In this document: piece by piece, positions 1,406 to 64,000 of the stretch | Numbering within the stretch: the first letter of the stretch is position 1 | Layout: each line of letters opens with the position of its first letter | Assembly: GCA_030528565.1 (NCBI GenBank) | Contig: JAUMYP010000002.1 | Span: forward strand, 56,854 to 120,853 | Source of the DNA: Pseudomonadota bacterium | GTDB taxonomy: Bacteria; Pseudomonadota; Gammaproteobacteria; Xanthomonadales; Xanthomonadaceae | Direction: 5' to 3' | Length of the DNA: 64,000 nt | Position numbers and translations under genes: made by a program | Notes under the pieces: model-generated | Database searches by the model: none | What the model saw: the letters and a program-made list of their open reading frames with translations, nothing else | Told to the model about the DNA's origin: nothing

Positions 1406-1406
1406 T

Positions 1407-4911: not shown

Positions 4912-5014
4912 CGGCACTTAAGGCCGCCACAGGCTGGCCTTGTCACTGCGCCCATCAATAGCCGCATGAAGCATCCATTGAAAACAAAAAATTAACCCTG
5001 ATCGCCATTATCAG

Positions 5015-5850: not shown

Positions 5851-5851
5851 A

Positions 5852-6706: not shown

Positions 6707-6810
6707 CAGCAGGCCAGACCGGCGTTCCAAGGCAGGGAGTGTTACGGTCAATGGGATTTTTTCCCCGGTATCCCGGTGGCAAAATGGTGCCCCTTTTGCG
6801 GAGAGCGCCC

Positions 6811-7626: not shown

Positions 7627-7757
7627 GATCACACCAAACGCCTGTCCAAAGGTTCCAAGAACCCGACAGGCAGCGCATCGTGATTACATCGTGCTCCATG
7701 GTGTGGCCGCTGAACTTGTGCACATCCTACGCGCCTCTAAGAGCCTGTTCAAAGGCT

Positions 7758-30902: not shown

Positions 30903-30978
30903 TGGTGGGCCCACCAGGATTCGAACCTGGAACCAAAGGATTATGAGTCCTCTGCTCTAACCGTTGAGCTATAGGCCC
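30903..30978 (-). tRNA. tRNA, anticodon CAU; probably tRNA-Ile2 (lysidine, ileX-like) rather than elongator Met
   Basis: 76-nt cloverleaf GGGCCUAUAGCUCAACGGUUAGAGCAGAGGACUCAUAAUCCUUUGGUUCCAGGUUCGAAUCCUGGUGGGCCCACCA. It has a 7-bp acceptor stem, a CAU anticodon and an encoded CCA. Closest in pattern to E. coli ileX and sits in the same place, directly 3' of rpoD. It lacks initiator features. Confidence 0.85.
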
Positions 30979-45635: not shown

Positions 45636-47264
45636 ATGAACCACATCCAGCCAGAAATCGAACGCGACGTCATGGAATATGACGTTGTGACCGTCGGTGC
45701 AGGGCCCTCCGGCCTTGCCTTTGCCATTCGCCTGAAACAGCTGAACCCTGAGCTTTCGGTGTGCATCATCGAAAAAGGCAGCACCGTCGGCGCGCATATC
45801 CTCTCCGGCGCGGTGATTGAGCCGGAGCCGCTGGATGCGCTCCTGCCCGGCTGGCGCGACAACCCGCCGCCGGTATGCGTGCCGGCGCGCGAGGACGAAT
45901 TCTGGCTGCTGTCCAGAACCGGCCAGCGCAAGCTGCCGCTGCCGCCGGGCATGAACAACCACGGCAACTTCATCGTCTCGCTCGGCGGCCTGTGCGCCTG
46001 GCTGGCGCCGCAGGCCGAAGCCCTGGGGGTGGAAATCTTCCCCGGCTTTGCCGCTGCCGAAACCCTGCACGATGACAGCGGCCGGGTGATTGGCGTGCGC
46101 ATCGGCGACATGGGCGTGGCCAAGGACGGAACCCCCAAGGACAGCTATACCCCCGGCATCGACATCCACGCCAAGGTCACGGTGCTGGCCGAAGGCGCGC
46201 GCGGACACCTCAGCAAACGCCTTATCAAGCGTTTTGGCCTGGATAAAGACAGCGACCCGCAGACTTATTCCATCGGCATCAAAGAACTGTGGCAGGTGGA
46301 CGAATCACGGGTTTCCCCCGGAAAAATCGTGCATACCCTGGGCTGGCCGGCCGACAGCCATATCTATGGCGGCAGCTTCCTGTATCACCTGGAAGGCGGG
46401 CGCATTGCGCTTGGCTATGTCAGCGGGCTGGACTACCGCGACCCGCATTACCGGCCCTGGGAAGCCTTCCAGCAGTGGAAGGCGCATCCGATGATTGCGC
46501 CCTTGCTGGAAGGCGGCAGCATCGTCTCCGCCGGCGCCCGCGCCATCGTCACCGGCGGCTGGCAATCGCTGCCGAAAGTGGAAATGCCGGGCGCACTGCT
46601 GATTGGCGATACCGCTGGCCTGCTCAATGTGCCCAAGGTCAAGGGCACCCACCAGGCAGTCCGCAGCGGCATGCTGGCCGCCGAGCATCTGGCTGCCAAT
46701 GCGCTCTCCAGCACCGGCTTTGATGCGCGGCTGCGCGATTCGGCGGTGATGGCCGAACTCAAGAAAGTGCGCAATATCAAGCCCGGCTTCAAGAAGGGGC
46801 TGTGGTTCGGCATGCTCAATGCCGGCTGGGAAACCGTCACCGGCGGCGCCTCGCCGTGGACGCTGGCGCAGACCGCCGACCACGCCGCGCTGCGCAAGGT
46901 CGGCGAAGCCCCGGCTGTGGACTACGACTATGTCGAGCGCAGCCTGCCGCCGCGCGACCGCCTGCAAGGCGTGTTCTATGCCGCCACCTCGCATGACGAA
47001 GACCAGCCGGTGCATCTGCAGATGCTCGAACCCGACCTGTGCGCCACCCGCTGCCTGGAGGAATACGACAACCCCTGCACCCGCTACTGCCCGGCCTCGG
47101 TCTATGAGATGGTCGATGATGCCAGCCAGCCGCACGGCAAACGCCTGCAAATCAATGCCGCCAACTGCGTGCACTGCAAGACCTGCGACATCAAGGACCC
47201 GTACCAGAACATCAACTGGGTCACTCCCGAGGGCGGCAGCGGGCCGAATTACCAGGGCATGTGA
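45636..47264 (+). CDS. electron transfer flavoprotein-ubiquinone oxidoreductase
   Basis: FAD motif DVVTVGAGPSGL plus C-terminal 4Fe-4S CVHCKTCDIKDP. Confidence 0.93.
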   Translation: MNHIQPEIERDVMEYDVVTVGAGPSGLAFAIRLKQLNPELSVCIIEKGSTVGAHILSGAVIEPEPLDALLPGWRDNPPPVCVPAREDEFWLLSRTGQRKLPLPPGMNNHGNFIVSLGGLCAWLAPQAEALGVEIFPGFAAAETLHDDSGRVIGVRIGDMGVAKDGTPKDSYTPGIDIHAKVTVLAEGARGHLSKRLIKRFGLDKDSDPQTYSIGIKELWQVDESRVSPGKIVHTLGWPADSHIYGGSFLYHLEGGRIALGYVSGLDYRDPHYRPWEAFQQWKAHPMIAPLLEGGSIVSAGARAIVTGGWQSLPKVEMPGALLIGDTAGLLNVPKVKGTHQAVRSGMLAAEHLAANALSSTGFDARLRDSAVMAELKKVRNIKPGFKKGLWFGMLNAGWETVTGGASPWTLAQTADHAALRKVGEAPAVDYDYVERSLPPRDRLQGVFYAATSHDEDQPVHLQMLEPDLCATRCLEEYDNPCTRYCPASVYEMVDDASQPHGKRLQINAANCVHCKTCDIKDPYQNINWVTPEGGSGPNYQGM

Positions 47265-49312
47265 TGGACGCGCAACAGGTGAATTCCGGTGCGCGTGATG
47301 CGGCGTTCCGCCTGCTGCGCGCCGGTTTTCGCCTGCTGCCGCTGTCCGAGCTGCGCCGCGATGCGCTGCGGCAATGGTTCCTGCAACGCTTCCCCGGTAT
47401 CCGCCCGGCCAGCCAGCCGCTGATTATCGGCAGCGCGCCCGGCCAGCGCCGCGCCCTGCAAGCGGCCGGCAGCCGGGCACTCGGCTACCGCGAGGACAGC
47501 CCCCCCGCACTACCCGCCCCCCTGCCAGCGCGGCTGGTGGCGTTCTACCTGCCGCAATTCCACCCGCTGGCCGAAAACGATACCGCCTGGGGCGCGGGCT
47601 ATACCGAATGGCGCGCCGTCAGCCGCGCCCTGCCACAGTTCGAAGGTCATGTGCAGCCGCGCCTGCCCGGCGCACTGGGCTTTTACGACCTGCGCCTGCC
47701 GGATGTGCTGCGCCAGCAGGCGGCGCTGGCCCGGCGTTACGGCATCAGCGCGTTTTGCAGCTATTTCTACTGGTTTCATGGCCGCACCGTGCTGGAAACC
47801 CCGCTGCGGCACTGGCTGGACAATCCGGACATCGACTTTCCGCTTTGCCTGTGCTGGGCCAATGAACCCTGGACGCGCACCTGGGATGGCAGCGCCGAGC
47901 AGGTACTGATTGCCCAGGCGCACGATGCCGAGGACGACCTGGCCTTTATCGCCCATGTGGCCGACTATCTGCGCGATGCGCGCTATCTGCGCGTCGATGG
48001 CAAGCCAGTGTTGTTGGTGTACCGCCCCGGCAAACTTCCCGATGCCCGCGCCACCGCCGGACGCTGGCGCCACTGGTGCCGCGACCACGGCATCGGCGAG
48101 ATTTACCTGGCCTATACCCAATCCTTCGAACGCCCCGACCCGCGCGATATCGGCTTTGATGCGGCGGTGGAGTTTCCGCCCAATCTGGTTGCGGCCACGA
48201 GCTTGAACGCCACCCAGCAGGCACTGAACCCGGCCTATCAGGGCAGCCTGCTGGACTGGCGCGAGCTGCCACCGCATTACCTTGGCAAACCGGCCAGCCC
48301 CTACCCGCTGCATCGCGCGGTGAACTGCGGCTGGGACAACGAACCGCGCCGCCCCGGACATGGACGCACCTGGCTGCATGCCGCCCCGCGCCGCTACCGC
48401 GACTGGCTGCGCGATGCCATCGCGCTATCGCCCCGCCACGGCACTGAGCCACCGCTGCTGTTCATCAATGCCTGGAACGAATGGGGCGAAGGCGCAGTGC
48501 TGGAGCCGGACAGCCGCCTGGGTCATGCCTGGCTCGCCGCCACCGCCGAGGCGCTGCGACCGCCACCGCCCAAGCCCGCCCGCCCCTGCGTGCTGATTCA
48601 CGCCTTCTACCCGGAAGTACTGGCGGAAATCCTCGATGTGCTGGCAAAGAGTGCATTGCAGGCGCGCCTTGTGATTACCACCGTGCCGGAAAAGTCCGCG
48701 GCCATCCGCCGCATGCTGACACAGCGCAGCCTGCAGGCCGAGGTGCATGTTGCCGAAAACCGTGGCCGCGACATCCTGCCGTTCCTGCAGCTTGCCAACC
48801 AACTGCTGGACGAGGGCGAGGACATCGTGCTGAAGCTGCATACCAAACGCTCCACCCATCGCGGTGATGGCGATGCCTGGCGACGCGAATTCACCGATGC
48901 ACTGCTGGGCGAGAACAGCGCCGCCATCCTGGCCGCCTTCGATGCCGACCCCAGGCTCGGCCTGCTCGCTCCGGCCAACCATCTGCAACCGATGCACTAT
49001 TACTGGGGCGCAAACGCGGCCAATGTCGATTACCTCTGCCGCCGCCTCGGGCTTGCCAGCGCCGATACCGAAAACGAACTATTCGCCGCCGGCAGCATGT
49101 ACTGGCTGCGGTTGGAAGCCCTGCGGCCACTGCTGGATGCGCATCTTGAGGAATGGGAGTTCGAGGCCGAGGCCGGACAAGTCGATGGCACCCTCGCCCA
49201 CGCCATCGAACGCATCGTGCTCAAAACCGTTCACGCCGCCGGTTACAGCCACCGCGCCTGGCCCGAGGATGACCAGAGCGACCTGCCCTACCGCTACGCC
49301 CGGCGTGATTGA
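47264..49312 (+). CDS. polysaccharide biosynthesis protein, WbsX-like domain fused to rhamnan-synthesis RgpF domain
   Basis: N-terminal WbsX/GH99-like domain (LPQFHPLAENDTAWGAGYTEWR...NAWNEWGEG) and C-terminal RgpF-like domain. Start GTG 47261 or ATG 47264 overlaps the ETF-QO stop. Confidence 0.7.
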   Translation: MDAQQVNSGARDAAFRLLRAGFRLLPLSELRRDALRQWFLQRFPGIRPASQPLIIGSAPGQRRALQAAGSRALGYREDSPPALPAPLPARLVAFYLPQFHPLAENDTAWGAGYTEWRAVSRALPQFEGHVQPRLPGALGFYDLRLPDVLRQQAALARRYGISAFCSYFYWFHGRTVLETPLRHWLDNPDIDFPLCLCWANEPWTRTWDGSAEQVLIAQAHDAEDDLAFIAHVADYLRDARYLRVDGKPVLLVYRPGKLPDARATAGRWRHWCRDHGIGEIYLAYTQSFERPDPRDIGFDAAVEFPPNLVAATSLNATQQALNPAYQGSLLDWRELPPHYLGKPASPYPLHRAVNCGWDNEPRRPGHGRTWLHAAPRRYRDWLRDAIALSPRHGTEPPLLFINAWNEWGEGAVLEPDSRLGHAWLAATAEALRPPPPKPARPCVLIHAFYPEVLAEILDVLAKSALQARLVITTVPEKSAAIRRMLTQRSLQAEVHVAENRGRDILPFLQLANQLLDEGEDIVLKLHTKRSTHRGDGDAWRREFTDALLGENSAAILAAFDADPRLGLLAPANHLQPMHYYWGANAANVDYLCRRLGLASADTENELFAAGSMYWLRLEALRPLLDAHLEEWEFEAEAGQVDGTLAHAIERIVLKTVHAAGYSHRAWPEDDQSDLPYRYARRD

Positions 49313-51866: not shown

Positions 51867-52232
51867 CTTGCTGGGAACTGCGCCAAGTTTAGCCGCCCAG
51901 CGGCAGAAACTGCACTGTACGTTTGTATTTGGAGCTTTGGAATGGCGCCATTACGGCCTCCCCTGCAGCAAGAGCCACGGGGAAGCGCTTGCTTTGAAGC
52001 AAGCGTGGATATTGTTGCGTCTTCAACATCGAAATATGCGCCCGGCAACGCACTCACTTTCTTTTGTGGACAAAATGACGCGTCTTGCGCCGCAAAATTC
52101 CTCGTGCAGAACAGACCGGAAAGTTAAGAACAAAAGCACCGAGTCCTTATCTTCTCCAAGCTAGCGGCAGCTGGAAGTACATTGCCATCAGCACAAATAA
52201 ACGTCTCTAACAATTCCAATCAGGACGCAGCT

Positions 52233-53645
52233 TCAACTGCGCCCGTAAACATCTTCCAGGCGTTCAATATCGTCTTCGCCAAGATAACTGCCGGACTGCA
52301 CTTCAATCAGCTCCACAGCTGTCTGCGTGGTATTGCGCAGGCGGTGGATGCTGCCCTGCGGGATATAGGTACTCTGGTTTTCGTGCAATTCGAATACCTG
52401 CTCATCGCAGGTGACCTCGGCCACGCCAGACACCACAATCCAGTGCTCGGCACGGTGCTGGTGGCGTTGCAGGCTGAGCGAGGCACCGGGTTTGACCACG
52501 ATGCGTTTGACCTGGAAACGCTCGCCCATTGCCAGCGAGTCATAGCTGCCCCAGGGACGGTATACCTTGCGGTGGTGCAGATGCTCGGTGCGGCCCTCGG
52601 CTTTCAGCGTGTCCACCAGTTTTTTCACATCCTGCACGCGCTCACGATGCGCCACCAGCACCGCATCGGCAGTATCGACCACAATCAAATCTTCCACGCC
52701 CAGCGCCGCCAACAGGCGGTCATCCGCCGCTTGCAGATAGGTATTGCGGCTATCAATGGCAATGGTATCGCCCAGTTGCACATTGCCCATCGGGTCGCGT
52801 GTGGCGACGCTCCACAGCGATGACCAGGAGCCGACATCACTCCAGCCGCAGTCCACCGGCACCACTGCGGCATTCGCGGCGCGCTCCATCACCGCATAGT
52901 CGATGGAGTCATCCGGGCTTTGCGCAAAGGCGTCCTTATCGACCCGGATAAAGTCCAGGTCACGCCGGGCAAGCTGCCATGCCTTGCGCGCCGCCGCCGC
53001 AATCGCCGGGGCATGGGTTTGCAAGGCGGCCAGATAGCTGTCGGCACGGAACAGGAACATCCCCGAGTTCCAGAGGTAATCGCCACTTTCAAGATATTGC
53101 CTGGCGCGCTCGGCATCGGGTTTTTCCACAAACGCCGCGATACGCTGCACGCCATCCCCCAGTGTTTCGCCACTGCGGATATAGCCATAGCCGGTTTCCG
53201 GGTATTCCGGGCGGATACCGAAAGTCACCAGCAGCCCTTGCTGCGCCTTGGGCAAGCCCGCCGCCACTGCTGCATGAAAGGCAGCCTCGTTGCGAATCAG
53301 ATGGTCGGCCGGCAACACCAGCAGTACACCCTCTGCATCGTCTGCCAGCACCTGCAAGGCGGCCAGAGCGATGGCCGGGGCAGTATTGCGCGCCACCGGC
53401 TCCAGCAGGATGCCGCTGCTTCCAAGGCCGATTTGCTGCAACTGCTCGCCGACCATGAAGCGGTGATCCTCGGCACAGACAGTCAGCACCGGGCGGGCAT
53501 CGGGCAGGCCCGCCACGCGCCGGGCGGTGGCCTGGAACAGGGTGTCATCGCCGGTCAACGCAAGGAACTGCTTGGGGGTATTGCTGCGCGAGCGCGGCCA
53601 AAGACGGGTGCCACTGCCGCCGCTCAAAATGACAGGATGAATCAT
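52233..53645 (-). CDS. manC: mannose-1-phosphate guanylyltransferase/mannose-6-phosphate isomerase (bifunctional, XanB/CpsB type)
   Basis: MIHPVILSGGSGTRLWP... plus a C-terminal cupin PMI domain; 470 aa. Confidence 0.9.
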   Translation of the reverse strand: MIHPVILSGGSGTRLWPRSRSNTPKQFLALTGDDTLFQATARRVAGLPDARPVLTVCAEDHRFMVGEQLQQIGLGSSGILLEPVARNTAPAIALAALQVLADDAEGVLLVLPADHLIRNEAAFHAAVAAGLPKAQQGLLVTFGIRPEYPETGYGYIRSGETLGDGVQRIAAFVEKPDAERARQYLESGDYLWNSGMFLFRADSYLAALQTHAPAIAAAARKAWQLARRDLDFIRVDKDAFAQSPDDSIDYAVMERAANAAVVPVDCGWSDVGSWSSLWSVATRDPMGNVQLGDTIAIDSRNTYLQAADDRLLAALGVEDLIVVDTADAVLVAHRERVQDVKKLVDTLKAEGRTEHLHHRKVYRPWGSYDSLAMGERFQVKRIVVKPGASLSLQRHQHRAEHWIVVSGVAEVTCDEQVFELHENQSTYIPQGSIHRLRNTTQTAVELIEVQSGSYLGEDDIERLEDVYGRS

Positions 53646-53679
53646 GTGTGATGATGCGTGCTCCAAGATACCGGCAAGA

Positions 53680-55584
53680 TTAGCCCAATGAAGCGATATC
53701 TGGCGGGCTATCTGCCTCAATACTCGCCAACAAGTCCAGCACGGCTTGAACCGCTTGTGAAGGCGAAAGCCGGTCTGCGGCAATCCTCAGCTCAGGGGAC
53801 TGCGGAGGTTCATAAGGCGAATCAATACCAGTGAAATTCGGCAGCTGTCCAGCGCGCGCCCTGGCATATAGCCCTTTCACATCGCGCGCCTCAGCGACTG
53901 CAAGCGGCACATCCACATGGACTTCCAGAAAGTCACCCGGCACAAACAGCTCACGTGCCATCTGTCGTTCGGCACGGAACGGTGAAATAAAGCTCACCAA
54001 TACCACCAATCCAGCATCGACCATCAGCTTTGCCACTTCAGCCACACGGCGGATGTTCTCCACCCGATCGGTATCGGTAAACCCCAAGTCGCGGTTCAGG
54101 CCATGCCGGATATTGTCCCCATCCAGCAAAATCGTATGGATACCGCGTGTATTGAGTTGAACCTCCACCTGATCGGCAATGGTCGATTTGCCTGCGCCAG
54201 ACAGGCCGGTAAACCAGATGCAGCGTGCTGCATGGCCTTTTATCCGGCTACGTGCGGCACGGCTCACCTGCAATGCCTGCCGGTGCAAATGACTCGCACC
54301 GCGCAACGGATGGTCAATCACTCCGGCAGCCACCGTGGCATTGGTAACGCGATCAATCAGAATGAACGCGCCCAGCTCGCGGTTATCGACAAATGCGGTA
54401 AAAGCCAGCGCACGATCCAGTTGCAGATTGCATATGCCAATCTCGTTGAGCTCGAGCTGCCTGGCTGCCAACGGCGCCAGTATTTCCGAGTCCAGCCGGT
54501 GCTTGAGGGTAGTCACACGCGCCAGCGTGCTGGCCGTACCTAACTGCAGCTGGTAGCTGCGACCAGGTATCAAAGCATTCTCATGCATCCACAGCAGGTG
54601 TGCAGCAAACTGGTCAGCTACCTCAACCGCTGTGCCTTCGCTGGCCGCAAGCACATCCCCTCGAGCCACATCGCATTCCCGATCCAGCAATACCGTTACA
54701 GCTTCACCCGCCTGTGCACTCATGACTTCGCCACGCGCAGTCAGTACCTGGCGCACCTGCGCCCGCTCCCCGCCCGGGAAAATTCGCACACTATCACCGC
54801 AGGCAAGACAGCCAGAAACAAGGTTGCCGCAATACCCACGAAAATCCTGGTGTGGACGGTTGACCCACTGCACCGGCAAAATCATGGCTGCAGAGTTGAG
54901 CTGTGCATCCTTGCCCTGTGCACTTTCCAGAAGCTGCAGCAAACTCGCCCCCTGATACCAGGGCATTCGCTGCGAGGGCTCGACCACGTTATCGCCAGCC
55001 AGCGCCGATAACGGGACCGCCTGCACCGAGGCAATCCCGATCCGCTGTGCAAGCTGTGCATACGCTCCGGCAATATCATCAAAGACTTCCTGTGCATAAC
55101 CCACGCAGTCCATCTTGTTGACTGCCAGCACTACCTGACGCACGCCGAACAACGACACAATCAGACTGTGACGGCGAGTCTGCGGCAGTAACCCCTTGCG
55201 GGCGTCCACCAACACCACCGCCAAATCTGCAGTGGATGCCCCCGTCGCCATGTTGCGGGTGTACTGCACATGCCCCGGACAATCGGCAACGATAAAGCGG
55301 CGTGAAGGCGTGGCGAAATAACGGTACGCCACATCAATGGTAATACCCTGGCTGCGCTCATCCTCCAGCCCATCCAGCAACAGGGCGTAATCCAGCACCT
55401 GACCCTGCGTACCCATGCGCGCACTGTCAGAACGCAATGCCAGCAACTGATCATCCTTGAGTGCACCGCAATCATGCAGCAAGCGGCCAATCAGGGTGCT
55501 TTTGCCATCATCCACGCTGCCGCAGGTGATAAAGCGCAACAGCCCAGCCGTCTGCCGGGCACCTGACTCATCCGAGAATACCAT
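53680..55584 (-). CDS. cysNC: bifunctional sulfate adenylyltransferase subunit 1 / adenylyl-sulfate kinase (CysN-CysC fusion, NodQ-like)
   Basis: N-terminal GTPase ([18 protein letters not shown]) plus C-terminal APS kinase P-loop (GLSGAGKST). 634 aa. Confidence 0.9.
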
Positions 55585-56483
55585 CAGAAATAGCCCTCGC
55601 GTTTTTTCTTCTCCATGGATGCTGACGGGTCATGGTCAATCACGCGCCCCTGGCGTTCCGAGTTTCGCGCCATGCGCATTTCCTCAATCACCTCATCAAG
55701 CGTGGCTGCCGTGGAATCAATCGCACCCGTCAACGGATAACAACCCAAGCTGCGAAAGCGAACCTGCCGCTGCTGCCAGTACTCTCCGGGACGTAGTTGC
55801 AAACGCTCATCATCACGCAAGATCAAATGACCATCTCGCTCCACCACTTCACGCCAGCGCGCAAAATACAGTTCGGGTACTTCAATTGATTCCCGCCGGA
55901 TGTATTCCCACACATCCAGCTCGGTCCAGTTGGACAACGGAAACACACGCACACGCTCACCGGCATGAATGCGGGTATTGAACAAACGCCACAACTCCGG
56001 GCGCTGTCGGCGCGGCTCCCAGTGATGCTGATGATTACGGAAGGAGAAAATCCGCTCCTTGGCACGAGAAGCTTCTTCATCACGCCTCGCCCCACCAATG
56101 ACCGCATCAAAGCCATGCGCATCCAGTACCTGACGCAATGCCTGGGTTTTCATGACATCGGTATGTACGGTTGCGCCGTGGGTCAGCGGCCCGATGCCGG
56201 CTGCCACACCTTCCGGGTTGCGGTATATGTGCAAATTCAAGCCAGTCTGTGCTGCACGCCGGTCGCGCAAGGCAATCATTTCCCGGAATTTCCAGCCAGT
56301 ATCCACATGCAGCAACGGGATTGTCGGACGTGCAGGCGCAAAAGCCTTGAGCAAAAGGTGCAACAACACCGCACTGTCTTTACCGATGGAATACAACAGC
56401 ACCGGATTGCAGAAGCAGGCCGCCACTTCCCGCAAGACAAACAGGCTTTCGTCCTCCAGCGCGTCCAGATAGTGGCGGCTCAC
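55584..56483 (-). CDS. cysD: sulfate adenylyltransferase subunit 2
   Basis: [14 protein letters not shown]... PAPS-reductase-like fold. Zero-gap junction with rmlD, 1-nt overlap with cysNC. Confidence 0.9.
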
Positions 56484-57383
56484 CTAGCCCGATCCGTGCC
56501 GTGTCATAACCAAATGATTCAGCGTAGTGGCAAGCCCGCTGCGCCAATCGGGCAGAGTCAGCGCAAAGTCATGCTCAAGGCTGCTCGCATCCAGCACCGA
56601 ATAGGCCGGGCGTTTGGCCGGGGTCGGGAAATCTGCCGTAGTGATGGGTAACACCGGCGTTTTTCTGGCCAGCAAACCCTGTGCGTGTGCGCCTTCGATA
56701 ATGGCCTTGGCAAAGCCATGCCAGGTGGTGCTGCCGGTCGGGGTCAGATGCCAGGTGCCGCTGGGGCGTTCAGGTTTTGCAAGGATTTGCGCAGTGACAT
56801 CGGCAATCAGCGCGGCAGGCGTGGGCGTGCCCTGCTGGTCGGCGACCACGCGCAGCGCATCGCGCTCGGCGGCCAGGCGCAGCATGGTGAGCAGGAAATT
56901 CTTGCCGTGATGCGCATATACCCAGGCGGTGCGCAGGATGGCGTGCTGGCAGCGGCTATCGCGGATGGCTTCCTCGCCAGCCAGCTTGCTTTCCCCGTAA
57001 GCCCCCAGTGGCGCGGTGGCATCTTCTGGCCGGTACGGGCGCTGCCCCTGTCCGTCGAAAACGTAGTCGGTGGAGTAATGCAGCAAATAAGCGTCCTGTG
57101 CCTTACAGGTTTCGGCCAGCACACGCGGGCTTTCGGCATTGACCAGGAACGCCAGGTCGCGCTCGCTTTCGGCCTTGTCCACCGCCGTGTAGGCAGCGGC
57201 ATTCACCACCACATCGGGTGCGGTTGCCTGCACCAAGGCACGCAGGGTTTCGGGCGCGGCAAAGTCCGCCACTACGCCATGCTCACCGGCACGGGTGGCG
57301 ACAATCAGCTCCCCCAAACCGGCCAGCGCGCGTCGGCATTCGGTGCCGACCTGGCCATTGCCTCCCAGGAGCAGAATTTTCAT
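56484..57383 (-). CDS. rmlD: dTDP-4-dehydrorhamnose reductase
   Basis: [15 protein letters not shown]...YSTDYVFDG... Confidence 0.9.
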   Translation of the reverse strand: MKILLLGGNGQVGTECRRALAGLGELIVATRAGEHGVVADFAAPETLRALVQATAPDVVVNAAAYTAVDKAESERDLAFLVNAESPRVLAETCKAQDAYLLHYSTDYVFDGQGQRPYRPEDATAPLGAYGESKLAGEEAIRDSRCQHAILRTAWVYAHHGKNFLLTMLRLAAERDALRVVADQQGTPTPAALIADVTAQILAKPERPSGTWHLTPTGSTTWHGFAKAIIEGAHAQGLLARKTPVLPITTADFPTPAKRPAYSVLDASSLEHDFALTLPDWRSGLATTLNHLVMTRHGSG

Positions 57384-57937
57384 GGCTGATATACCGGCAG
57401 GCGCTCGGCGGGAATATCGGCCAGGAACGGCGCAGTGCTATCTTTGGCCGAAAGCTGCGGCGCCGACAGCGGCCAGTCAATCGCAAGCTGGCCGTCATTC
57501 CAGGCGATATTGGCATCGGCAGCAGCATCGTAGGTTTCCGTGCACAAATAGGTAAACAGCGCACGCTCGCTCAGCACCACAAAGCCATGCGCAAAGCCCT
57601 CGGGTATCCAGAAGTGCCGCTTGTTTTCTGCACTCAATAGCGCCGCGACCCACTGTCCGAAGGTCGGCGAGCCGCGGCGGATATCCACCGCCACGTCCCA
57701 CACCTCGCCTTCCAGCACCGAAACCAGCTTGCCCTGCGGCTTGGGCCACTGGTAATGCAGGCCGCGCAGCACACCCCTGGCCGACTGCGAAACATTGCCC
57801 TGCTTGAAATTCAGCGGCAGGCCATGCCCGGCCAGCTTGTCGGCATTGAAGGACTCATAGAAAAACCCGCGCTCATCGGCAAATACCCGTGGCTCGATGA
57901 TGCGGCAGCCGGGCAACTCGGTTTCAATGATTTTCAC
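57380..57937 (-). CDS. rmlC: dTDP-4-dehydrorhamnose 3,5-epimerase
   Basis: ...[12 protein letters not shown]...RGLHYQ... Confidence 0.92.
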
Positions 57938-58839
57938 GGTACATAACCTCGCTCCGGCAGGCTCATCAGGTAGCGGCCATAACCGTTTTTGAGCAGCGGC
58001 CTGGCGAGTTTTTCCAGTTGTGCTGCATCAATCCAGCCACTCATGAAGGCGATTTCTTCCGGGCAACACACTCTCAGCCCCTGACGCGCCTCGATGGTTT
58101 CAATGTAGTTCGCCGCTTCCAGCAGGGACTGGTGCGTTCCGGTATCCAGCCAGGCATAGCCGCGTCCCAGTCGCTCCAGATGCAGCGCGCCTTCCTGCAG
58201 ATAGATTTTATTAAGGTCGGTGATTTCCAGCTCGCCGCGTGGCGAAGGTTTGAGATTGGCAGCCAATTCCGGCGCGCGGCCATCGTAGAAATACAGGCCG
58301 GTCACCGCGTAATTGGAGCGCGGATTCTGCGGCTTTTCTTCCAGGCCAATCACCCGGCCATCGGCATCGAATTCGGCCACGCCATAACGCTCCGGGTCCT
58401 GCACCCAGTAGCCGAACACCGTCGCCCCCTCACTGCGGGCGTCGGCACGCTTCAGCATCGCAGTCAGGCCCGGGCCGTGGAAGATGTTGTCGCCCAGCAC
58501 CAGACAGCTCGGTGCGCCACCCAGAAACTCCGCACCAATAGTGAACGCCTGCGCCAGGCCATCAGGGCTGGGCTGCACCGCATATTCAAACTTCATCCCC
58601 CATTGCGCGCCATCGCCCAGCAGGCTCTTGAACAGCGCCTGCTCGTGCGGGGTGTTGATAATCAGCACTTCACGAATCCCGGCCAGCATCAGCACGCTAA
58701 GCGGGTAATAAATCATCGGTTTGTCATACACCGGCAGCAGCTGCTTGCTGATGCCCTGGGTGATGGGATAGAGCCGGGTGCCGGAGCCACCGGCCAGAAT
58801 GATGCCTTTGCGCTGCATAGTGCGATATTCCTCTGTCAT
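57934..58839 (-). CDS. rmlA: glucose-1-phosphate thymidylyltransferase
   Basis: [20 protein letters not shown]...; the probable start is at 58818. Confidence 0.93.
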
Positions 58840-58929: not shown

Positions 58930-59991
58930 TCAGTTCTCCCCATCTCGCCCCATGCGCTCCAGACGGTAGCTGCCATCCAGCACCCGCTGCACCCACGCCT
59001 GGTTGTCCAGATACCAGCGCACGGTATCGGCAATGCCCTGTTCAAAGGTATGCGCAGGCTCCCAGCCCAGCTCACGCTTGAGCTTGGAAGCATCAATCGC
59101 ATAACGGCGGTCATGGCCGGGACGGTCGCGCACATAGGTGATTTGCGCCTGATACTTCTGGCCGTCGGCGCGCGGGCGCAGCTCGTCCAGCAGGGCGCAG
59201 ATGGTCATCACCACCTCGATGTTCTGGCGCTCGGCATTGCCGCCGACATTGTAGGTTTCGCCCACCTGCCCCTTGGCAAGCACAGTGCGGATGGCCGCGC
59301 AGTGGTCGCCCACATACAGCCAGTCGCGCACATTCTTGCCATCGCCATAAATCGGCAGCGGCTCACCGGCCAGCGCCCGGGCGATGATGAGCGGGATGAG
59401 CTTCTCCGGAAACTGGAACGGGCCGTAATTATTGGAGCAATTGGTGGTCAGCACCGGCAGGCCATAGGTATGGTGGAAGGCGCGCACCAGATGGTCAGAC
59501 GCAGCCTTGGAGGCCGAGTATGGCGAATTCGGCGCATAGGCGGTCTCTTCGGTAAACAGGCCAGTCTCGCCCAGCGAGCCATACACTTCATCGGTGGACA
59601 CATGCAGGAAGCGGAACGCCGCCTGTCCGGCCTCATCCAGACCGCGCCAGTAATCGCGCGTGGCCTCCAGCAAGCCCAGCGTCCCCACCACATTGGTGTG
59701 CACAAACGCCGCCGGGCCATCAATGGAACGGTCCACATGGCTTTCGGCAGCGAAATTAATCACCGCATCCGGGCGGTGCCCGGCAAGCAAGCGCGCCACC
59801 AGCTCGCGGTCACCGATATCGCCCTTGACGAATACATGATTGGCATTGTCGGCAAGCTCGGCCAGGGTATCGAGATTGCCCGCATAGGTCAGCAAATCCA
59901 GATTCACCACCTTGACCCCGGCCTTGACCGCCTCCAGCACGAAATTGCCGCCAATGAAGCCGGCGCCGCCGGTCACCAACCATGTTTGCAT
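58930..59991 (-). CDS. rmlB: dTDP-glucose 4,6-dehydratase
   Basis: [18 protein letters not shown]..., an SDR with the YxxxK motif. Confidence 0.93.
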
Positions 59992-60059: not shown

Positions 60060-62330
60060 TCAGAAACGTGGCGGAAACGCGAGCATAAACTCCTGCTGCA
60101 AATGCAAGGATAGATTTGGATTGTAGAAGGGATCGTAGTTCAGAGAATCCCCATAACGAGCCCTCATAAACTCAATCTCCCCAGCAAATCTAGCTTGCTT
60201 TTCAGGATTATCATCACGCCCACGCGAGGCGGACTCATGATGATACAGCTCAGCAAATGGAGTCCATATATTCCTGTAGCCCGCATCCCTCAGTCGCAAG
60301 CAAAAATCCACATCATTGAAAGCCACTGCCAATTGCTCATCCAGCCCGGAAACAGCTTCAAAAGCGCTGCGACTTACAACGAGACATGCGCCCGTAACTA
60401 TACTCACCACCTGCGTCAATCGCCCCCGACAAAAATAACCATCAAAACCACGCGACGCACAGCTGTAAATATGACCTGCAATTCCCCCCAACCCACTCAC
60501 AACCCCTGCATGCTGAATGGTGTCATCCGGATAATAAAGCATCGCCCCAACTGCACCCACACCCGGCTTTAACGCATGCGAAACCATTTCATCAAGCCAC
60601 CCCTCAGAAATCACCTCGATATCATTATTAATAAGCCCTAAAACCTCACCTCTCGCAATCGATGCAGCATAATTATTGATTGCCGAATAATTAAATTCAG
60701 CATCATAGGGAACCACCCTAACCCTAAAGTCATCCTGTATATAGCTAAAGTATTCTAACGTCTCAGACTCCACAGAGCCATTATCAACAATGATAATATC
60801 AAAATTTTCATATCTTGTTTTTTCAATAATACTGCCAACACAAACCTTGAGCAGATCCACCTTATCACGGGTCGGAATAATAAGGCTAACCAAAGGCTTC
60901 CGTTCCGGCAAAATTATTTCCGACCTGATATAGCCATCATTTCCACCTACCACATTCGCCCTTACACCAATCCTTTCAAAATGCTGACTAACTGCACTTT
61001 CCGCCGCAACAGCTGCATAGCTCTTTTCATGAACCCCCATTGAAGTCGAACCTGGAATGGTTCTCCAGTGATAAAGAACCTTAGGAATATGAATAATCTG
61101 TGACGATTTAATTTTCTCAATACAGCGCAATGCCAAATCCCAATCCTGAGAACCTTCCATCCCCACTCTAAAACCACCGACTTCACGAACCAGGCCAGCC
61201 TCATAGACACCCAGATGAGAAATGCAATTCTGACCAAGAAACAGCTCGTAATTCCAGTCCGTTTTGAAATAAGGACCAAACCTAACCCCATCTTCGTCAA
61301 TCTTATCCTCATCACTGTAAATTACTTTTGCATCTGGATTCTTATCCAATGCCTCGGCCACACATAACAATGCCTCGGGATGCAACTCATCATCATGATC
61401 AAGCAAAACCAAAAAATCCCCCCGGGCAATTTCCAGCGCAGAATTTGACGCTTCAGATATATGCCCATTTTTATTGCGGGAAATGTATTTTACCCGACCA
61501 TCCTTACTTGAATATTCCTCCAGAACCTTCAACACATGCCTCTCGGTAGAGGCATCATCCGCAACACAAATCTCCCAATTCTCATAAACCTGCGCCAAGA
61601 CACTATCCAGCGCCTTCCTGAACCATTTTTCCGGAGGATTATAAACAGGCATAATTACAGAAAAAAGAGGCAGCCCTGACAACCCCCTTTTGCGCTCCTC
61701 CAGCTCCCGAGAGCGCCACTCAACCGGAGGATCGTAAATTCTTACCCATCCCTGATAACTTGAGCAAACATTCGAGAATTTACTCAAATAACTTACCCTC
61801 AACTCCGCGACTGCCTGCCGTACACCTTGCCGCCTTGCCACAAGAAAGAGACTTCTTATGAAGGCGTACCAAACACTACCAGCCTGCCCTCCCCTACTTT
61901 CACAAACAGAGCTTATCATCCCCCAATAAGCAGCCACCCTAGGAATACGACGAATACAGGCATCCCCAAGCGAGAAAAACGCCTTACGAACAGTAGGATC
62001 AAACCTCAATGACTTTGCAGGCTTTATCAAGACAATAATGCAGTCAATCTTATCCTCATCCTGACGATACCAAAGAGGCACTATGTTTATTTCACCAAAC
62101 CCCCCTCCATAGTCAGGGTATATACAAGGTCCTACAATCCCTCCAAGCTCCCCAGTCAGCTGAATTTGCAAGTGATACCACCCCTGCTCCCAATCACCCT
62201 CCCCTTCTTTACAAATCAGGAATTGAGGATCATTGTCCACTGATTGCCACCGGCTCCACCTATCTCCTTCCCCACCCTCTCGACGCAGACCCAACAAAGG
62301 ATTAAAACCGATTTTTATTTTCTTCATCAT
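60060..62330 (-). CDS. multidomain glycosyltransferase: unknown about 230-aa N-domain plus two tandem GT2 (GT-A) domains; low-GC
   Basis: GT2 domain 1: FSVIMPVYNPPEKWFRKALDSVLAQ...LLDHDDE. GT2 domain 2: VSLIIPTRDK...IIIVDNGS...LINNDIEV. The N-terminal 230 aa have no recognisable motifs. GC is clearly below the flanks. Confidence 0.75.
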   Translation of the reverse strand: MMKKIKIGFNPLLGLRREGGEGDRWSRWQSVDNDPQFLICKEGEGDWEQGWYHLQIQLTGELGGIVGPCIYPDYGGGFGEINIVPLWYRQDEDKIDCIIVLIKPAKSLRFDPTVRKAFFSLGDACIRRIPRVAAYWGMISSVCESRGGQAGSVWYAFIRSLFLVARRQGVRQAVAELRVSYLSKFSNVCSSYQGWVRIYDPPVEWRSRELEERKRGLSGLPLFSVIMPVYNPPEKWFRKALDSVLAQVYENWEICVADDASTERHVLKVLEEYSSKDGRVKYISRNKNGHISEASNSALEIARGDFLVLLDHDDELHPEALLCVAEALDKNPDAKVIYSDEDKIDEDGVRFGPYFKTDWNYELFLGQNCISHLGVYEAGLVREVGGFRVGMEGSQDWDLALRCIEKIKSSQIIHIPKVLYHWRTIPGSTSMGVHEKSYAAVAAESAVSQHFERIGVRANVVGGNDGYIRSEIILPERKPLVSLIIPTRDKVDLLKVCVGSIIEKTRYENFDIIIVDNGSVESETLEYFSYIQDDFRVRVVPYDAEFNYSAINNYAASIARGEVLGLINNDIEVISEGWLDEMVSHALKPGVGAVGAMLYYPDDTIQHAGVVSGLGGIAGHIYSCASRGFDGYFCRGRLTQVVSIVTGACLVVSRSAFEAVSGLDEQLAVAFNDVDFCLRLRDAGYRNIWTPFAELYHHESASRGRDDNPEKQARFAGEIEFMRARYGDSLNYDPFYNPNLSLHLQQEFMLAFPPRF

Positions 62331-62542
62331 AAATCACATCCAGGATAAATCTTCCAAGGCTTAACTAAATATAGATATAAAATATTCAAAGCCCCGACAA
62401 AGGCCCGTTCTTCTCCATTCAGACAACACCCTACTTCTTAGCGCGCAGATGCAGCCCATGATCAATAGCCTCACTCTCCCGAGCTTTAGTCTGTAGAATA
62501 CTACTCCCTACAGTCTGTGTTCTCCCTAAGGTAGCCCTCCAG

Positions 62543-63289
62543 ATGAGAATTCTTGTTGCATACAAGCGGGTCATCGACTCCGATGTCCGTGTACAGGTCA
62601 AGCCGGATAACAGCGGCGTAGTCAGTGAAGGCGTCAAGCTCTCGGCCAACCCGTTTGACGATATCGCCCTGGAAGAAGCCCTGCGCCTGCGCGACAAGGG
62701 CATTGCCACAGAAGTGATTGTCGCCACCATCGCCCCGTCCGATGCCCAGCCACATCTGCGCAATGGCCTGGCCATGGGCGCCAACCGCGCCTTGCACGTG
62801 GTGTCCGACACTCCGGTACAACCACTGACCGCCGCCCGCGTACTGCTGAAGCTGGTTGAAAAAGAGCAGCCCGACATCGTACTGATGGGCAAGCAGGCGA
62901 TTGACGATGACGCAAGCCAGACCGGGCAAATGCTAGCCACCCTGTGGCAGCGCCCGCAGGCCACCTTTGCCAGCCAGGTGGAAGTCGCTGATGGCAAGGC
63001 CACCGTGGTGCGCGAGGTCGATGCCGGCCTTGAAACGCTGGAAGTGGACCTGCCGGCGGTCATCACCACCGACCTGCGCCTCAACAAGCCGCGTTTCATC
63101 AAGCTGCCGGACATCATGAAAGCCAAGAGCAAGCCGCTGGAAACCATCGCCCTGGCCGAGCTTGGCGTGGCCAGCGCCGACACCCTGAAAACCACCCACT
63201 ACGCCCCGCCCGCGCAGCGCAGCCGCGGCGTGATGGTCAAAGACGCCGCAGAACTTGTCGCCAAACTCAAAGAAAAAGGGCTGCTGTAA
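62543..63289 (+). CDS. etfB: electron transfer flavoprotein subunit beta
   Basis: MRILVAYKRVIDSDVRVQVKPD... Confidence 0.93.
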   Translation: MRILVAYKRVIDSDVRVQVKPDNSGVVSEGVKLSANPFDDIALEEALRLRDKGIATEVIVATIAPSDAQPHLRNGLAMGANRALHVVSDTPVQPLTAARVLLKLVEKEQPDIVLMGKQAIDDDASQTGQMLATLWQRPQATFASQVEVADGKATVVREVDAGLETLEVDLPAVITTDLRLNKPRFIKLPDIMKAKSKPLETIALAELGVASADTLKTTHYAPPAQRSRGVMVKDAAELVAKLKEKGLL

Positions 63290-64000
63290 TGAGCAAGGTA
63301 TTGATTGTTGCCGAACACCTGGATGGTCAACTGAATGCCGCCACCGGCAAATGCGTCAGCGCCGCCAAGGCACTGAACCCCGAAGCCATCGACATTGTGG
63401 TACTGGCGGCCGACCCGGCCTCTGTCGCCGCACAAGCTGCGCAAATTGAAGGCGTTACCCGCGTACTGAGCATTGCCAACCCGGCCAACCAGAACGCCAT
63501 CGCACAAGTGCTGGCGCCACAAGTGACCGAAGTAGCCAAGGGCTATAGCCATGTATTTGGCCCCAGCACCACCTTCGGCAAAGACCTGATGCCCTGTATC
63601 GCCGCCCTGCTGGGCGTGGCACAGGTTTCCGACCTGATGGCCGTGGACGGCCCCTACAGTTTCAAGCGCCCGATGTATGCCGGTAACGCCATCGTCAGCG
63701 TCGAAGCCCCGGCCGACCAGATTCTGGTCGCCACCGTGCGTAGCGCCTCCTGGCCTGCCGCCGCACAAGGCGGCAATGCTGCGGTTGAAACCGTCAGCGT
63801 GAATGCCGCCCTGCCCAGCCACACCCGCTTTGTAAAACTTGAAAGCGGCGCATCCGACCGCCCCGACCTGCAAAGCGCCCGCCGCGTGGTGTCTGGTGGC
63901 CGCGGTGTGGGCTCAGAAGAAAACTTCCGCGTCATCTACCAACTCGCCGACAAGCTCGGCGCCGGTGTCGGCGCCTCACGAGCCGCCGTTGACGCTGGCT
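63289..64000 (+). CDS. etfA: electron transfer flavoprotein subunit alpha (5' part; runs off window)
   Basis: MSKVLIVAEHLDGQLNAATGKCVSAA... The ATG overlaps the etfB stop (TAATG). Confidence 0.9.
   Translation, partial: MSKVLIVAEHLDGQLNAATGKCVSAAKALNPEAIDIVVLAADPASVAAQAAQIEGVTRVLSIANPANQNAIAQVLAPQVTEVAKGYSHVFGPSTTFGKDLMPCIAALLGVAQVSDLMAVDGPYSFKRPMYAGNAIVSVEAPADQILVATVRSASWPAAAQGGNAAVETVSVNAALPSHTRFVKLESGASDRPDLQSARRVVSGGRGVGSEENFRVIYQLADKLGAGVGASRAAVDAG

Follow-up and report, generated by a model that had tools for sequence, protein, structure and literature searches.

Sulfate-activation genes cysD and cysNC embedded in an rml/manC operon of a Lysobacteraceae lineage

The 64,000-nt window analysed here (the whole stretch of DNA under study) carries the genes for PAPS synthesis, cysD and cysNC, inside an rml/manC operon for nucleotide sugars, an embedding that was proposed in an earlier note on this DNA and is borne out by gapless junctions and by the same block in relatives. 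On balance, these genes are probably, though far from certainly, the ordinary sulfate-activation genes of the lineage, relocated, and the counterparts of RaxP and RaxQ (that is, CysD and CysNC) of Xanthomonas. The relocated PAPS genes may also feed strain-specific sulfation. Within the 64 kb of the window strain, nothing able to put sulfate on a sugar was found.

Structure of the operon and integrity of its enzymes

All operon genes from rmlB to manC lie on the minus strand, as the earlier note had it for rml, cysD, cysNC and manC; its coordinates hold throughout (its interval 53680-57383 takes in rmlD too), and every gene scores above a curated HMM cut-off. The upstream border is marked by the divergent gene etfB for the electron-transfer flavoprotein beta subunit (62543..63289, plus strand), identified by homology to L030 and L001 and by a protein of identical sequence, assigned to ETF by Pfam, on a single 4.6-kb contig (L082), the only exact match to this protein. 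Exact-protein look-ups for the window CysNC and RmlA returned no record. Next to etfB lies the 5' part of etfA (63289..64000, plus strand), cut by the window end and 90-94% identical to EtfA of the NML strains; in relatives, a hypervariable O-antigen locus begins past this gene. Two minus-strand open reading frames (62431-63195 and 63199-63873), considered as upstream operon genes, are shadows of the plus-strand etfB and etfA. Upstream of the gene string, the divergent region between etfB and the glycosyltransferase (62331..62542) is the one non-coding stretch of appreciable size, and it is the presumed operon promoter region.

On the minus strand, the string starts with the bifunctional polymerase-type glycosyltransferase GT756 (60060..62330; two Pfam GT2 matches, an AlphaFold model and Foldseek matches). 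It continues with rmlB, dTDP-glucose 4,6-dehydratase (58930..59991; TIGR01181, 507 bits versus a cut-off of 365), rmlA, glucose-1-phosphate thymidylyltransferase (57934..58839; TIGR01207, 504 versus 361), rmlC, dTDP-4-dehydrorhamnose 3,5-epimerase (57380..57937; TIGR01221, 248 versus 156), and rmlD, dTDP-4-dehydrorhamnose reductase (56484..57383; TIGR01214, 347 versus 224). The dTDP-L-rhamnose pathway is complete, with four of four enzymes above their equivalog cut-offs. Then follow cysD, the ATP sulfurylase small subunit (55584..56483), and the fused gene cysNC (53680-55584), composed of the ATP sulfurylase GTPase subunit CysN (aa 1-430, 54295..55584) and the APS kinase domain CysC (aa 453-620, 53725..54228). 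After a 34-nt spacer conserved in relatives (53646..53679, minus strand), the conserved block closes with manC/xanB, bifunctional mannose-1-phosphate guanylyltransferase/mannose-6-phosphate isomerase (52233..53645; TIGR01479, 685 versus 373, and Pfam), and similarity to the related loci L001 and L002 stops exactly at 52232-52233. A weak terminator-like hairpin on the minus strand about 140 nt downstream of manC (52077..52091) is a possible operon end, of low confidence; the promoter and terminator consensus scan that yielded it was uninformative, because its counts were no higher than in shuffled sequence.

The junctions along rmlA-rmlC-rmlD-cysD-cysNC are a 4-nt overlap, a second 4-nt overlap, zero gap and a 1-nt overlap; with rmlA/rmlC and rmlC/rmlD overlapping, five consecutive genes therefore form a gapless run. 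At the rmlD/cysD junction (...GGGC TAG GTG AGC...), the TAG stop of rmlD abuts the cysD start, and the GTG is in the rmlD frame, as the first codon past the stop. Since this GTG is the sole canonical start (ATG, GTG or TTG) upstream of the conserved CysD N-terminus, the gap is zero, which agrees with the earlier reading, as do the 1-nt overlap of cysD and cysNC (...TTC TGATG GTA...) and the 34 nt from the cysNC TAA to the manC ATG. The cysNC start is preceded by the Shine-Dalgarno sequence GAGGG about 9 nt upstream. The pair is thus likely to be transcribed with the rml genes, and translation along rmlA-rmlC-rmlD-cysD-cysNC may be coupled by termination and reinitiation.

Both PAPS-synthesis proteins appear intact. 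CysD matches two equivalog models (NF009214, 484.4 bits versus 413; TIGR02039, 466.8 versus 396.6) and has the PP-loop ATP-pyrophosphatase motif S-x-G-K-D-S as SIGKDS at residues 32-37. The assignment of the CysN-CysC fusion to PAPS synthesis is well supported by the bifunctional CysN/CysC model NF004035 (914.5 versus 715) and by the models for its parts, TIGR02034 for CysN (583.9 versus 336.1) and TIGR00455 for CysC (238.6 versus 138.7). In the alignment to CysN of P. syringae (1ZUN_B, E 8.5e-128), the GTPase motifs G1, G3 (DCPGH) and G4 (NKMD) are intact, and the CysC domain, aligned to solved APS kinases from plant, human and M. tuberculosis, has the P-loop GLSGAGKST and the substrate motif LDGD. 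In the clade comparison, dN/dS is 0.04-0.07 for cysD, 0.09 for the CysN part and 0.07-0.08 for the APS-kinase domain: the block is under strong purifying selection, APS-kinase domain included. CysD and the CysN GTPase would thus form APS from sulfate and ATP, and the fused CysC domain would phosphorylate APS to PAPS.

The lack of a promoter region of its own for cysD (0-1 nt past rmlD) is a point against the relocation of assimilation genes. The enterobacterial cysDNC operon catalyzes the same conversion of sulfate to APS and PAPS and likewise couples translation of cysN to that of cysD; there, cysC stands alone as a gene, and a CysB-dependent promoter serves the operon. In the window, by contrast, CysN and CysC form one protein, and the pair is without a promoter region of its own, so that any local control of the CysB type has been lost. 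Such a loss is unexpected for assimilation genes, whereas genes for a glycan precursor would naturally lack this control. The linkage might also couple envelope polysaccharide synthesis to the APS/PAPS pool, with PAPS as a metabolic signal. Its sole support is a precedent in Vibrio vulnificus, where accumulation of PAPS drives expression of the brp exopolysaccharide via c-di-GMP (PMC6113621); neither a regulator nor a c-di-GMP gene is linked to the operon, and we regard such coupling as very improbable.

Conservation of the block and ancestry of cysD-cysNC

The window belongs to a member of the Lysobacteraceae that stands near the clinical "NML" isolates, on which a literature search found nothing relevant. 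The rmlBACD-cysD-cysNC-manC block stands beside etfBA in at least nine related assemblies (NML95-0200, NML03-0222, NML75-0749, NML71-0210, two Logan assemblies and three ENA metagenome contigs), with the rmlD/cysD junction reading TAG-GTG, TAA-GTG or TAG-G-TTG. As relatives share the block, junctions included, the arrangement is more than an accident of a single genome. In at least nine assemblies the block is invariant while the locus past etfA varies, holding an IS5 element, DegT/GT2/WxcM genes, or GT2/ACP/KR/AMP-ligase genes. When metagenomes were scanned with CysD, the best match was 77% identical, and no additional member of the window clade came to light. Two candidates were discarded. 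What looked like a gene between cysNC and etfB in L030 is the 3' end of cysNC, repeated in tandem, and P0002, considered as an intermediate relative near Wza/Wzc/Wzy genes, is a chimeric CysNC whose internal duplication inflates its score and which is no closer than other matches.

The host cluster has a counterpart in the rmlBACD-xanB(A) nucleotide-sugar cluster of Stenotrophomonas and Xanthomonas, with rmlB-A-C-D followed by the bifunctional manC/xanB near etfBA and the O-antigen locus. The window clade differs in having cysD-cysNC inserted precisely at the rmlD/manC boundary.

Window CysNC and the CysNC of Lysobacteraceae (RaxQ of Xanthomonas) are monophyletic with respect to the outgroups in 99 of 100 neighbor-joining bootstraps, and window CysNC has diverged in step with the Rml and CysD proteins encoded beside it. 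The earlier comparison with NodPQ and RaxPQ holds for the chemistry of PAPS synthesis; the CysNC groups with the RaxQ orthologues, and a NodPQ-like import from outside the family is unlikely. RaxP and RaxQ of Xanthomonas oryzae pv. oryzae come from the same bacterial family and share the two-gene layout, in which CysN and the APS kinase form one protein; identity of the Xanthomonas proteins to those of the window is about 65% for CysNC and 68-72% for CysD. In X. oryzae pv. oryzae, one RaxP/RaxQ pair supplies PAPS both to assimilation and to the sulfotransferase RaxST. Unlike the window, where the pair follows rmlD without a gap and no raxST-like gene is present, the fetched Xanthomonas loci have it divergent from cysJIH with an intergenic control region of its own.

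The position beside cysJIH is the common one: in 47 of 80 related genome loci, cysJ-cysI-cysH and cysD are divergently oriented and 212-1030 bp apart. The one CysH that was scored, from L027, is of the PAPS-reductase type (TIGR02057, 288 bits versus a cut-off of 254; APS_reductase model, 144 bits, below its cut-off of 235), so that the CysN-CysC fusion is needed for ordinary cysteine synthesis in Lysobacteraceae. Given such a CysH, PAPS would be an obligatory intermediate of cysteine synthesis in most of the family, where cysD-cysNC stands back-to-back with cysJIH. None of cysH, cysI and cysJ is found within the 64-kb window. In the genus-level clade of the window, the pair would have left the cysJIH position for its place between rmlD and manC (xanB), beside etfBA, and in a few other deep lineages of Lysobacteraceae it appears to have moved too, in other forms. 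In different arrangements, cysDNC is linked to rml and/or manC in several deep lineages (L030, L070, L049/L061, L097, L107 and L121), and this recurrence itself counts against relocation of plain assimilation genes. The neighbors of manC-cysD-cysNC in some of these loci, amgK/murU-like genes (APH and NTP_transferase domains) in L061 and L107 and scoAB in L097, speak for it.

So does the codon composition: GC3 of cysD and cysNC is 0.58-0.62, about 10 points lower than in the rml and manC genes on either side, a pattern that holds for the window as well as for L166. This dip against both flanks, conserved in the clade, and the long branch of the window clade in the CysNC tree would suit an extra cysD-cysNC pair of the NodPQ kind, acquired with glycan genes and serving sulfation only, while a housekeeping system lies elsewhere. 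In Sinorhizobium meliloti, NodP and NodQ are encoded by extra plasmid-borne copies linked to the dedicated sulfotransferase NodH; the likeness to the window, CysD plus a CysN-CysC fusion making PAPS, is at the level of enzyme chemistry, whereas the window genes group with the chromosomal set of the family and have no linked sulfotransferase. A precedent for second copies is the capsule locus of Vibrio sp. KMM 8419, where an rml operon is combined with cysD, cysN and cysC, these being second copies, and with three sulfotransferase genes, and where the polymer contains sulfated L-rhamnose (PMC11641403). The combination of PAPS genes with sulfotransferase genes was named by its authors as the hallmark of sulfated-polysaccharide loci (PMC11641403); the window has the PAPS half of it, cysD and cysNC between rmlD and manC, and the sulfotransferase half is missing. 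Moreover, the tree places CysNC within the family and not with outsiders, its divergence scales with that of its Rml neighbors, and the block belongs to an invariant core while the glycan-specific genes around it vary. Among the best 80 matches of the genome scan there is one cysNC locus per genome and no second locus from the same genomes, which is weak evidence, as a peptide-pattern scan could miss a divergent copy. A dedicated second copy therefore seems distinctly unlikely, and we infer that the relocated pair is single-copy and assimilatory.

Sulfotransferases and the glycosyltransferase GT756

The earlier note reported no recognizable sulfotransferase in the window, and our scans concur: about 48 window open reading frames outside the dcw genes have no Pfam match to Sulfotransfer_1/2/3 or Stf0, and the PSB-loop motif is absent from all window open reading frames of at least 150 aa. 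Sulfotransferases are likewise missing from the flanks of L001 and L002 and from the visible 1.5-7 kb past etfA in eight other clade members.

Two proteins had been suggested as candidates, and neither withstood analysis. Glycosyltransferase models cover residues 93-662 of the WbsX/RgpF protein, all but 92 residues. In the AlphaFold model of GT756 (pLDDT 87), a beta-sandwich (residues 5-129, all-beta) and a helical bundle (131-215) are followed by two GT-A (GT2) domains. The N-terminal domain thus differs in fold from a sulfotransferase; it has no PSB loop, no Pfam match at E<=1 and, taken alone, no word-index homologues. In addition, the metagenomic locus L144 has a separate sulfotransferase gene next to its GT756 homologue, and the long forms described below add a further domain. 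The best Foldseek matches of GT756 are the dual GT-A polymerases PmHS2 and K4CP, and all fold matches listed are glycosyltransferases. The gene has a low GC content (45.8%) and is strain-variable, being absent from L002, L166, L167, L168 and L172.

Sulfotransferases do occur in relatives. About 20 of the best 120 GT756 homologues carry a fused N-terminal sulfotransferase domain: these 120 include 22 long forms of at least 1200 aa, 20 of which begin with a sulfotransferase PSB loop, VLGMHRSGTSAL, and each of four long forms scanned against Pfam has an N-terminal Sulfotransfer_3 match, two of them at or near the gathering score. These fused polymerases come from Stenotrophomonas and Pseudoxanthomonas, whose sampled genomes have cysDNC beside cysJIH; sulfation in Lysobacteraceae therefore need not require a dedicated cysDNC copy. 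NML08-0793, a strain of the window clade whose EtfA is 90% identical, encodes a bona fide sulfotransferase directly after Wzt and GT1, within the O-antigen locus that adjoins etfBA. This enzyme has 262 aa (L163:15381-16169), the PSB loop VQKGGTTAL, the 3'-PB motif RDPVARAYS and a Sulfotransfer_3 match at 1e-13, and is adjoined by a second, weak sulfotransferase-like open reading frame. L144 and L130 likewise have a sulfotransferase gene in the locus. In L144, this Sulfotransfer_2 gene is accompanied by cysD, cysN and cysC, by rmlC, by a full-length homologue of GT756 at 46% identity, and by genes for a KpsC/S-like protein, a protein with a DHHA1 domain and a transporter that includes a sulfate-symporter domain.

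These observations favor a possible, though not probable, double use, in which PAPS is also an O-antigen precursor and the pair was captured by the rml/manC operon, and retained there by selection, because O-antigens of this clade would often be sulfated by strain-specific sulfotransferases encoded past etfA, assimilation being served as well. The NML08-0793 enzyme, the fused long homologues, the combination in L144, the missing cysD promoter region and the recurring rml/manC-cysDNC linkage all speak for it. Nevertheless, no sulfotransferase is seen in the window or the visible flanks of the eight clade members, the closest relative, NML95-0200, has an IS5 element and housekeeping genes past etfA, and GT756 of the window is the short form, devoid of the sulfotransferase domain. 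Furthermore, CysNC from NML08-0793 is absent among the best matches and from the 90% cluster, and this strain is hence not placed among the block carriers.

In a stronger version, which we think unlikely, PAPS is a committed O-antigen precursor: the only sulfate-activation genes of the family would have been captured because rhamnan-type O-antigens built by polymerases of the GT756 type are sulfated, and the sulfotransferase of the window strain would lie outside the 64 kb. The sulfate could then be a non-reducing-end cap for Wzm/Wzt export, and the sulfotransferase would be fused to the polymerase (Stenotrophomonas, Pseudoxanthomonas) or encoded in the variable locus (NML08-0793). In a search for literature on sulfotransferase-terminated O-antigens, none of the 12 titles listed was relevant.

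Implications for sulfur assimilation and surface glycans

We return to the relocation of ordinary sulfate-activation genes, which has against it the absent cysD promoter region, the recurrent linkage, the GC3 dip and the NML08-0793 sulfotransferase. On this explanation, PAPS would enter a general pool that serves assimilation and any sulfotransferase encoded in the variable O-antigen locus of a strain. The earlier note had argued from co-transcription with nucleotide-sugar genes to a sulfated glycan. Intact PAPS genes do lie in the rml/manC unit, and to that extent the argument stands. Its milder form, sulfation in addition to assimilation, is the double use judged possible above. The step to sulfation as the note took it lacks support, given the family-type CysNC, the cysJIH position in 47 of 80 loci, the window without a sulfotransferase and a block that stays constant despite differing O-antigen loci.

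At the least, the locus is a curiosity of gene order, a core sulfur-assimilation pair without a control region of its own riding on a sugar-nucleotide operon, and a caution that the position of cysDN(C) alone is no basis for inferring sulfated glycans. If the linkage is functional, it would carry greater weight. To our knowledge, no sulfated O-antigens have been described for Lysobacteraceae, a family that includes clinical isolates and the pathogens of Stenotrophomonas and Xanthomonas, and we know of no description of sulfate marking the chain end where O-antigen assembly depends on an ABC transporter. Polymerases with a fused sulfotransferase domain offer a direct experimental handle on O-antigen sulfation.

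The sulfate-activation genes in the rml-manC operon

The observation of cysD and cysNC within the rml-manC operon is correct and robust. The operon lies on the minus strand in the 3' third of the window and contains eight genes, which were identified by NCBIfam equivalog models, every operon member scoring above the curated cut-off. It starts with the gene for a 756-aa glycosyltransferase (GT756, 60060-62330) and continues with rmlB (58930-59991), rmlA (57934-58839), rmlC (57380-57937), rmlD (56484-57383), cysD (55584-56483), cysNC, encoding a CysN-CysC fusion (53680-55584), and the bifunctional manC/xanB (52233-53645). The junctions agree with the earlier note: there is no gap between rmlD and cysD, cysD and cysNC overlap by 1 nt, and the start of manC follows 34 nt after the stop of cysNC. 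The GTG start of cysD comes at once, and in frame, after the TAG stop of rmlD, and no other canonical start (ATG, GTG or TTG) was found upstream of the conserved CysD N-terminus; the cysD/cysNC junction is TGATG, with one base in common and a GAGGG ribosome-binding site upstream. Together with the 4-nt overlaps of rmlA/rmlC and rmlC/rmlD, these junctions make rmlA-rmlC-rmlD-cysD-cysNC a single uninterrupted coding string. On its upstream side GT756 is bordered by the plus-strand genes etfB and etfA, and the minus-strand ORFs found there were rejected as operon genes, being shadow ORFs of etfB/etfA. Elsewhere in the window (45636-49312, plus strand), the gene for ETF-ubiquinone oxidoreductase shares its last 4 nt (47261-47264) with the start of a gene for a 683-aa WbsX/RgpF-type glycosyltransferase; translational coupling between a respiratory gene and one for a rhamnan-type glycosyltransferase is odd.

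Judged by sequence, both CysD and CysNC look functional. CysD has the PP-loop SIGKDS; the alignment of CysN with the solved structure of P. syringae CysN covers the full length, and the G1, G3 and G4 motifs are retained; and the C-terminal 170 residues of CysNC align with solved APS kinases, with the P-loop and the LDGD motif retained. The dN/dS ratios against close relatives (0.04-0.07 for cysD and 0.09 for cysNC) are similar to those of the rml genes and manC, and the GTPase and kinase halves of cysNC are under equal constraint (omega ~0.08-0.09 each).

When one genome per prokaryotic species was scanned for CysNC homologues, two matches were found at 90% identity, in 'Lysobacteraceae bacterium' NML95-0200 (GCA_002798255.1) and NML03-0222; identity was 62-67% to the remaining Lysobacteraceae and 56-61% to other phyla and classes. 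In both isolates rmlBACD-cysD-cysNC-manC is collinear with the window at ~90% DNA identity, and the same block and junctions recur in NML75-0749 (GCA_002798155.1) and NML71-0210 (GCA_002798235.1), in two Logan assemblies and in three ENA metagenome contigs. GT756 is strain-variable: of the clade members, only the window, NML95-0200 and a single Logan contig have it, and in the rest etfB abuts rmlB. Its low GC content (45.8%, GC3 0.43, versus ~62% GC for the genome) suggests horizontal acquisition, as an insert at the operon head between etfB and rmlB. The DNA past etfA also varies by strain, consisting of IS5 and housekeeping genes, of DegT/GT2/WxcM-like genes, of GT2/ACP/ketoreductase/AMP-ligase genes, or of a full ABC-transporter O-antigen locus. 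Thus the block that contains cysD-cysNC is a conserved core next to a hypervariable O-antigen region, and the pair is outside the serotype-specific gene set. Directly after manC (window 51867-52232) there is a rearrangement breakpoint, where similarity to the relatives ends (52232-52233); the window continues with scoA/scoB (3-oxoacid CoA-transferase), whereas all sequenced relatives have creD.

Ancestry and probable role of cysD-cysNC

Among the best 80 genome loci, 47 have cysJ-cysI-cysH upstream of cysD on the other strand, at a distance of 212-1030 bp, and these include essentially every Xanthomonas, Lysobacter, Stenotrophomonas and Pseudoxanthomonas genome of the 80. In the sole locus annotated (L027), a CysB-like LysR regulator is located 3.5 kb from cysH, and its cluster was found again in ~26 loci. 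The CysH protein of the same locus, the one CysH scored, passed the PAPS-reductase model (288 bits, cut-off 254) and failed the APS-reductase model (144 bits, cut-off 235), which implies that Lysobacteraceae assimilate sulfate via PAPS. On these comparisons the Lysobacteraceae use the CysN-CysC fusion as their ordinary housekeeping enzyme, and it does not mark an accessory system of NodQ type. With respect to sulfur metabolism, a SAM riboswitch (Rfam RF00162, 89 bits) was observed at 2202-2308 (minus strand); downstream are an ORF with a weak alpha/beta-hydrolase match only (1407-2276, minus strand) and a cystathionine gamma-synthase gene (248-1441, minus strand; best PDB match 6LD9, E 2e-180), from which it follows that methionine is made from cysteine by transsulfuration.

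The window CysNC and its Lysobacteraceae counterparts form a clade against all outgroups in 99 of 100 neighbor-joining bootstraps, the window protein being sister to the Lysobacteraceae in 54 replicates and nested among them in 45. Its extra divergence rises in proportion with that seen for the Rml and CysD proteins encoded next to it. Such a tree and such scaling are to be expected of an orthologue that a deep-branching lineage has inherited vertically. We lean, with slightly better than even confidence, to the reading that cysD-cysNC are ordinary sulfate-activation genes, orthologues of RaxP/RaxQ, which moved into the constitutive rml-manC operon. The relocated genes would be translationally coupled to this precursor operon, and their PAPS would go into a general pool.

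A purely housekeeping role does not sit easily with two features: cysD-cysNC lacks a control region of its own, and GC3 is 0.58-0.62 in cysD and cysNC versus 0.66-0.78 in the rml, manC, etf and sco genes around them. This drop of ~10 points under both flanks is seen in the window (53680-56483) and in NML75-0749 (L166:9102-11905); it is conserved in the clade and possibly reflects a codon-usage difference or an older transfer out of a relative with lower GC. That the pair is a dedicated, acquired second copy is improbable beside relocation or a link to the O-antigen. A signalling role of PAPS, for which there is a precedent in V. vulnificus (PMC6113621), would be less probable still.

Linkage of these genes to sugar genes recurs in other lineages. 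The arrangement rmlBACD-cysD-cysNC was found in L030 and L070, both MAGs of deep-branching Lysobacteraceae, and manC-cysD-cysNC in five further loci (L049, L061, L097, L107 and L121). Since L097 shares etfBA, scoAB and ETF-QO with the window, the neighborhood must be old in this branch of the family; the O-antigen-type protein past etfBA in L097 has a methyltransferase domain and no sulfotransferase domain. L061 and L107 are flanked by amgK/murU-like genes (APH and NTP_transferase domains). With such neighbors, the recurrent linkage allows two readings, synteny by descent and selection for co-expression. Three peculiarities of single loci were observed in addition: a DcsG-like ATP-grasp gene between rmlD and cysD of an uncultured Lysobacter MAG (L070:5931-6848; NCBIfam D-cycloserine synthetase 302 bits, under the cut-off of 360); tandem repeats of the cysNC 3'-end between cysNC and etfB (L030:11836-13236), which are either an assembly artefact or a genuine repeat array; and a 722-aa CysNC (P0002; L081, ENA contig k127_20119667), probably chimeric by assembly, in which ~100 residues are duplicated internally and whose gene lies directly upstream of the exopolysaccharide genes for Wza, Wzc, Wzy and Ugd.

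Sulfotransferases in the window and in related loci

The statement of the earlier note that the window contains no recognizable sulfotransferase was upheld: no Pfam match to one was found in the ~48 ORFs scanned outside the dcw cluster, and no window ORF of at least 150 aa has the PSB-loop motif. Neither of its two candidates survived. In the structure model of GT756 (alignment of 50 sequences, pLDDT 87), residues 5-129 are all-beta and residues 131-215 helical, followed by two GT-A domains; by fold it most resembles the dual-GT-A polymerases PmHS2 and K4CP, and the N-terminal domain has no Pfam match even at E<=1. In the WbsX/RgpF protein, residues 93-662 are spanned by glycosyltransferase models. 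As published for Vibrio sp. KMM 8419 (PMC11641403), the hallmark of sulfated-polysaccharide loci is the co-occurrence of PAPS genes, as second copies, with sulfotransferase genes; the window shows only half of it. Other observations in the window are a segment of lower GC (4001-8000, 0.57), in which the ORFs 5015-5533 (172 aa) and 5852-6706 (284 aa) have no Pfam match, the RNase P RNA (class A, 319 bits; 26419-26760, minus strand) between the dcw cluster and rsmI, and a tRNA gene adjoining rpoD (30906-30978, minus strand).

Relocation has a serious rival in the reading that, for part of the strains in the clade, cysD-cysNC is functionally linked to sulfation of the O-antigen; we consider this possible if rather doubtful. 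The link is favored by the O-antigen locus that adjoins etfA in NML08-0793 (GCA_002798275.1; L163:12465-16169, NWQR01000003.1), whose EtfA is 90% identical to that of the window. This locus contains genes for Wzt, GT1 and a GT756 homologue (58% identity) and heptose-nucleotide genes, as well as a bona fide 262-aa sulfotransferase with textbook motifs for PAPS binding (Sulfotransfer_3, 1e-13; PSB loop VQKGGTTAL, 3'-PB RDPVARAYS) beside a weaker sulfotransferase-like ORF of 286 aa. It also encodes a 1245-aa glycosyltransferase that has a faint P-loop match at the N-terminus and is predicted to contain a helical, coiled-coil-like segment.

In addition, long forms (at least 1200 aa) make up 22 of the 120 best GT756 homologues; they come from Stenotrophomonas, Pseudoxanthomonas and others, and 20 of the 22 have the PSB loop VLGMHRSGTSAL at their start. 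All four long forms scanned with Pfam show an N-terminal Sulfotransfer_3 match (at or near the gathering score in two), then a linker of ~350 aa and a complete GT756-like module. In Stenotrophomonas and Pseudoxanthomonas this subfamily of ~1300-aa O-antigen polymerase-like proteins is well populated (P0188 from Pseudoxanthomonas jiangsuensis, P0151, P0162, P0141 and ~16 more). Its layout suggests that O-antigens in this family are sulfated, possibly as a chain-end cap, and we know of no description of this.

Sulfotransferase, rml and cys genes are combined in two JGI metagenome loci. The first (L144:1725-15270) has a Sulfotransfer_2 gene and a full-length GT756 homologue (46% identity, N-terminal domain included) together with rmlC, KpsC/S-like and DHHA1-domain genes, cysD, cysN, cysC and a transporter gene with a sulfate-symporter domain; in the second (L130:2044-10894), a 1054-aa sulfotransferase-GT2-GT2 fusion is encoded between rmlBDAC and cysD. 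Both have the look of genuine sulfated-polysaccharide loci. Against the link stands the position of cysDNC in the sampled Stenotrophomonas and Pseudoxanthomonas genomes, where it stays beside cysJIH; sulfation in the Lysobacteraceae may thus do without a copy that is dedicated or relocated. Overall, the polymers made by glycosyltransferases of the GT756 family are probably sulfated in some organisms.
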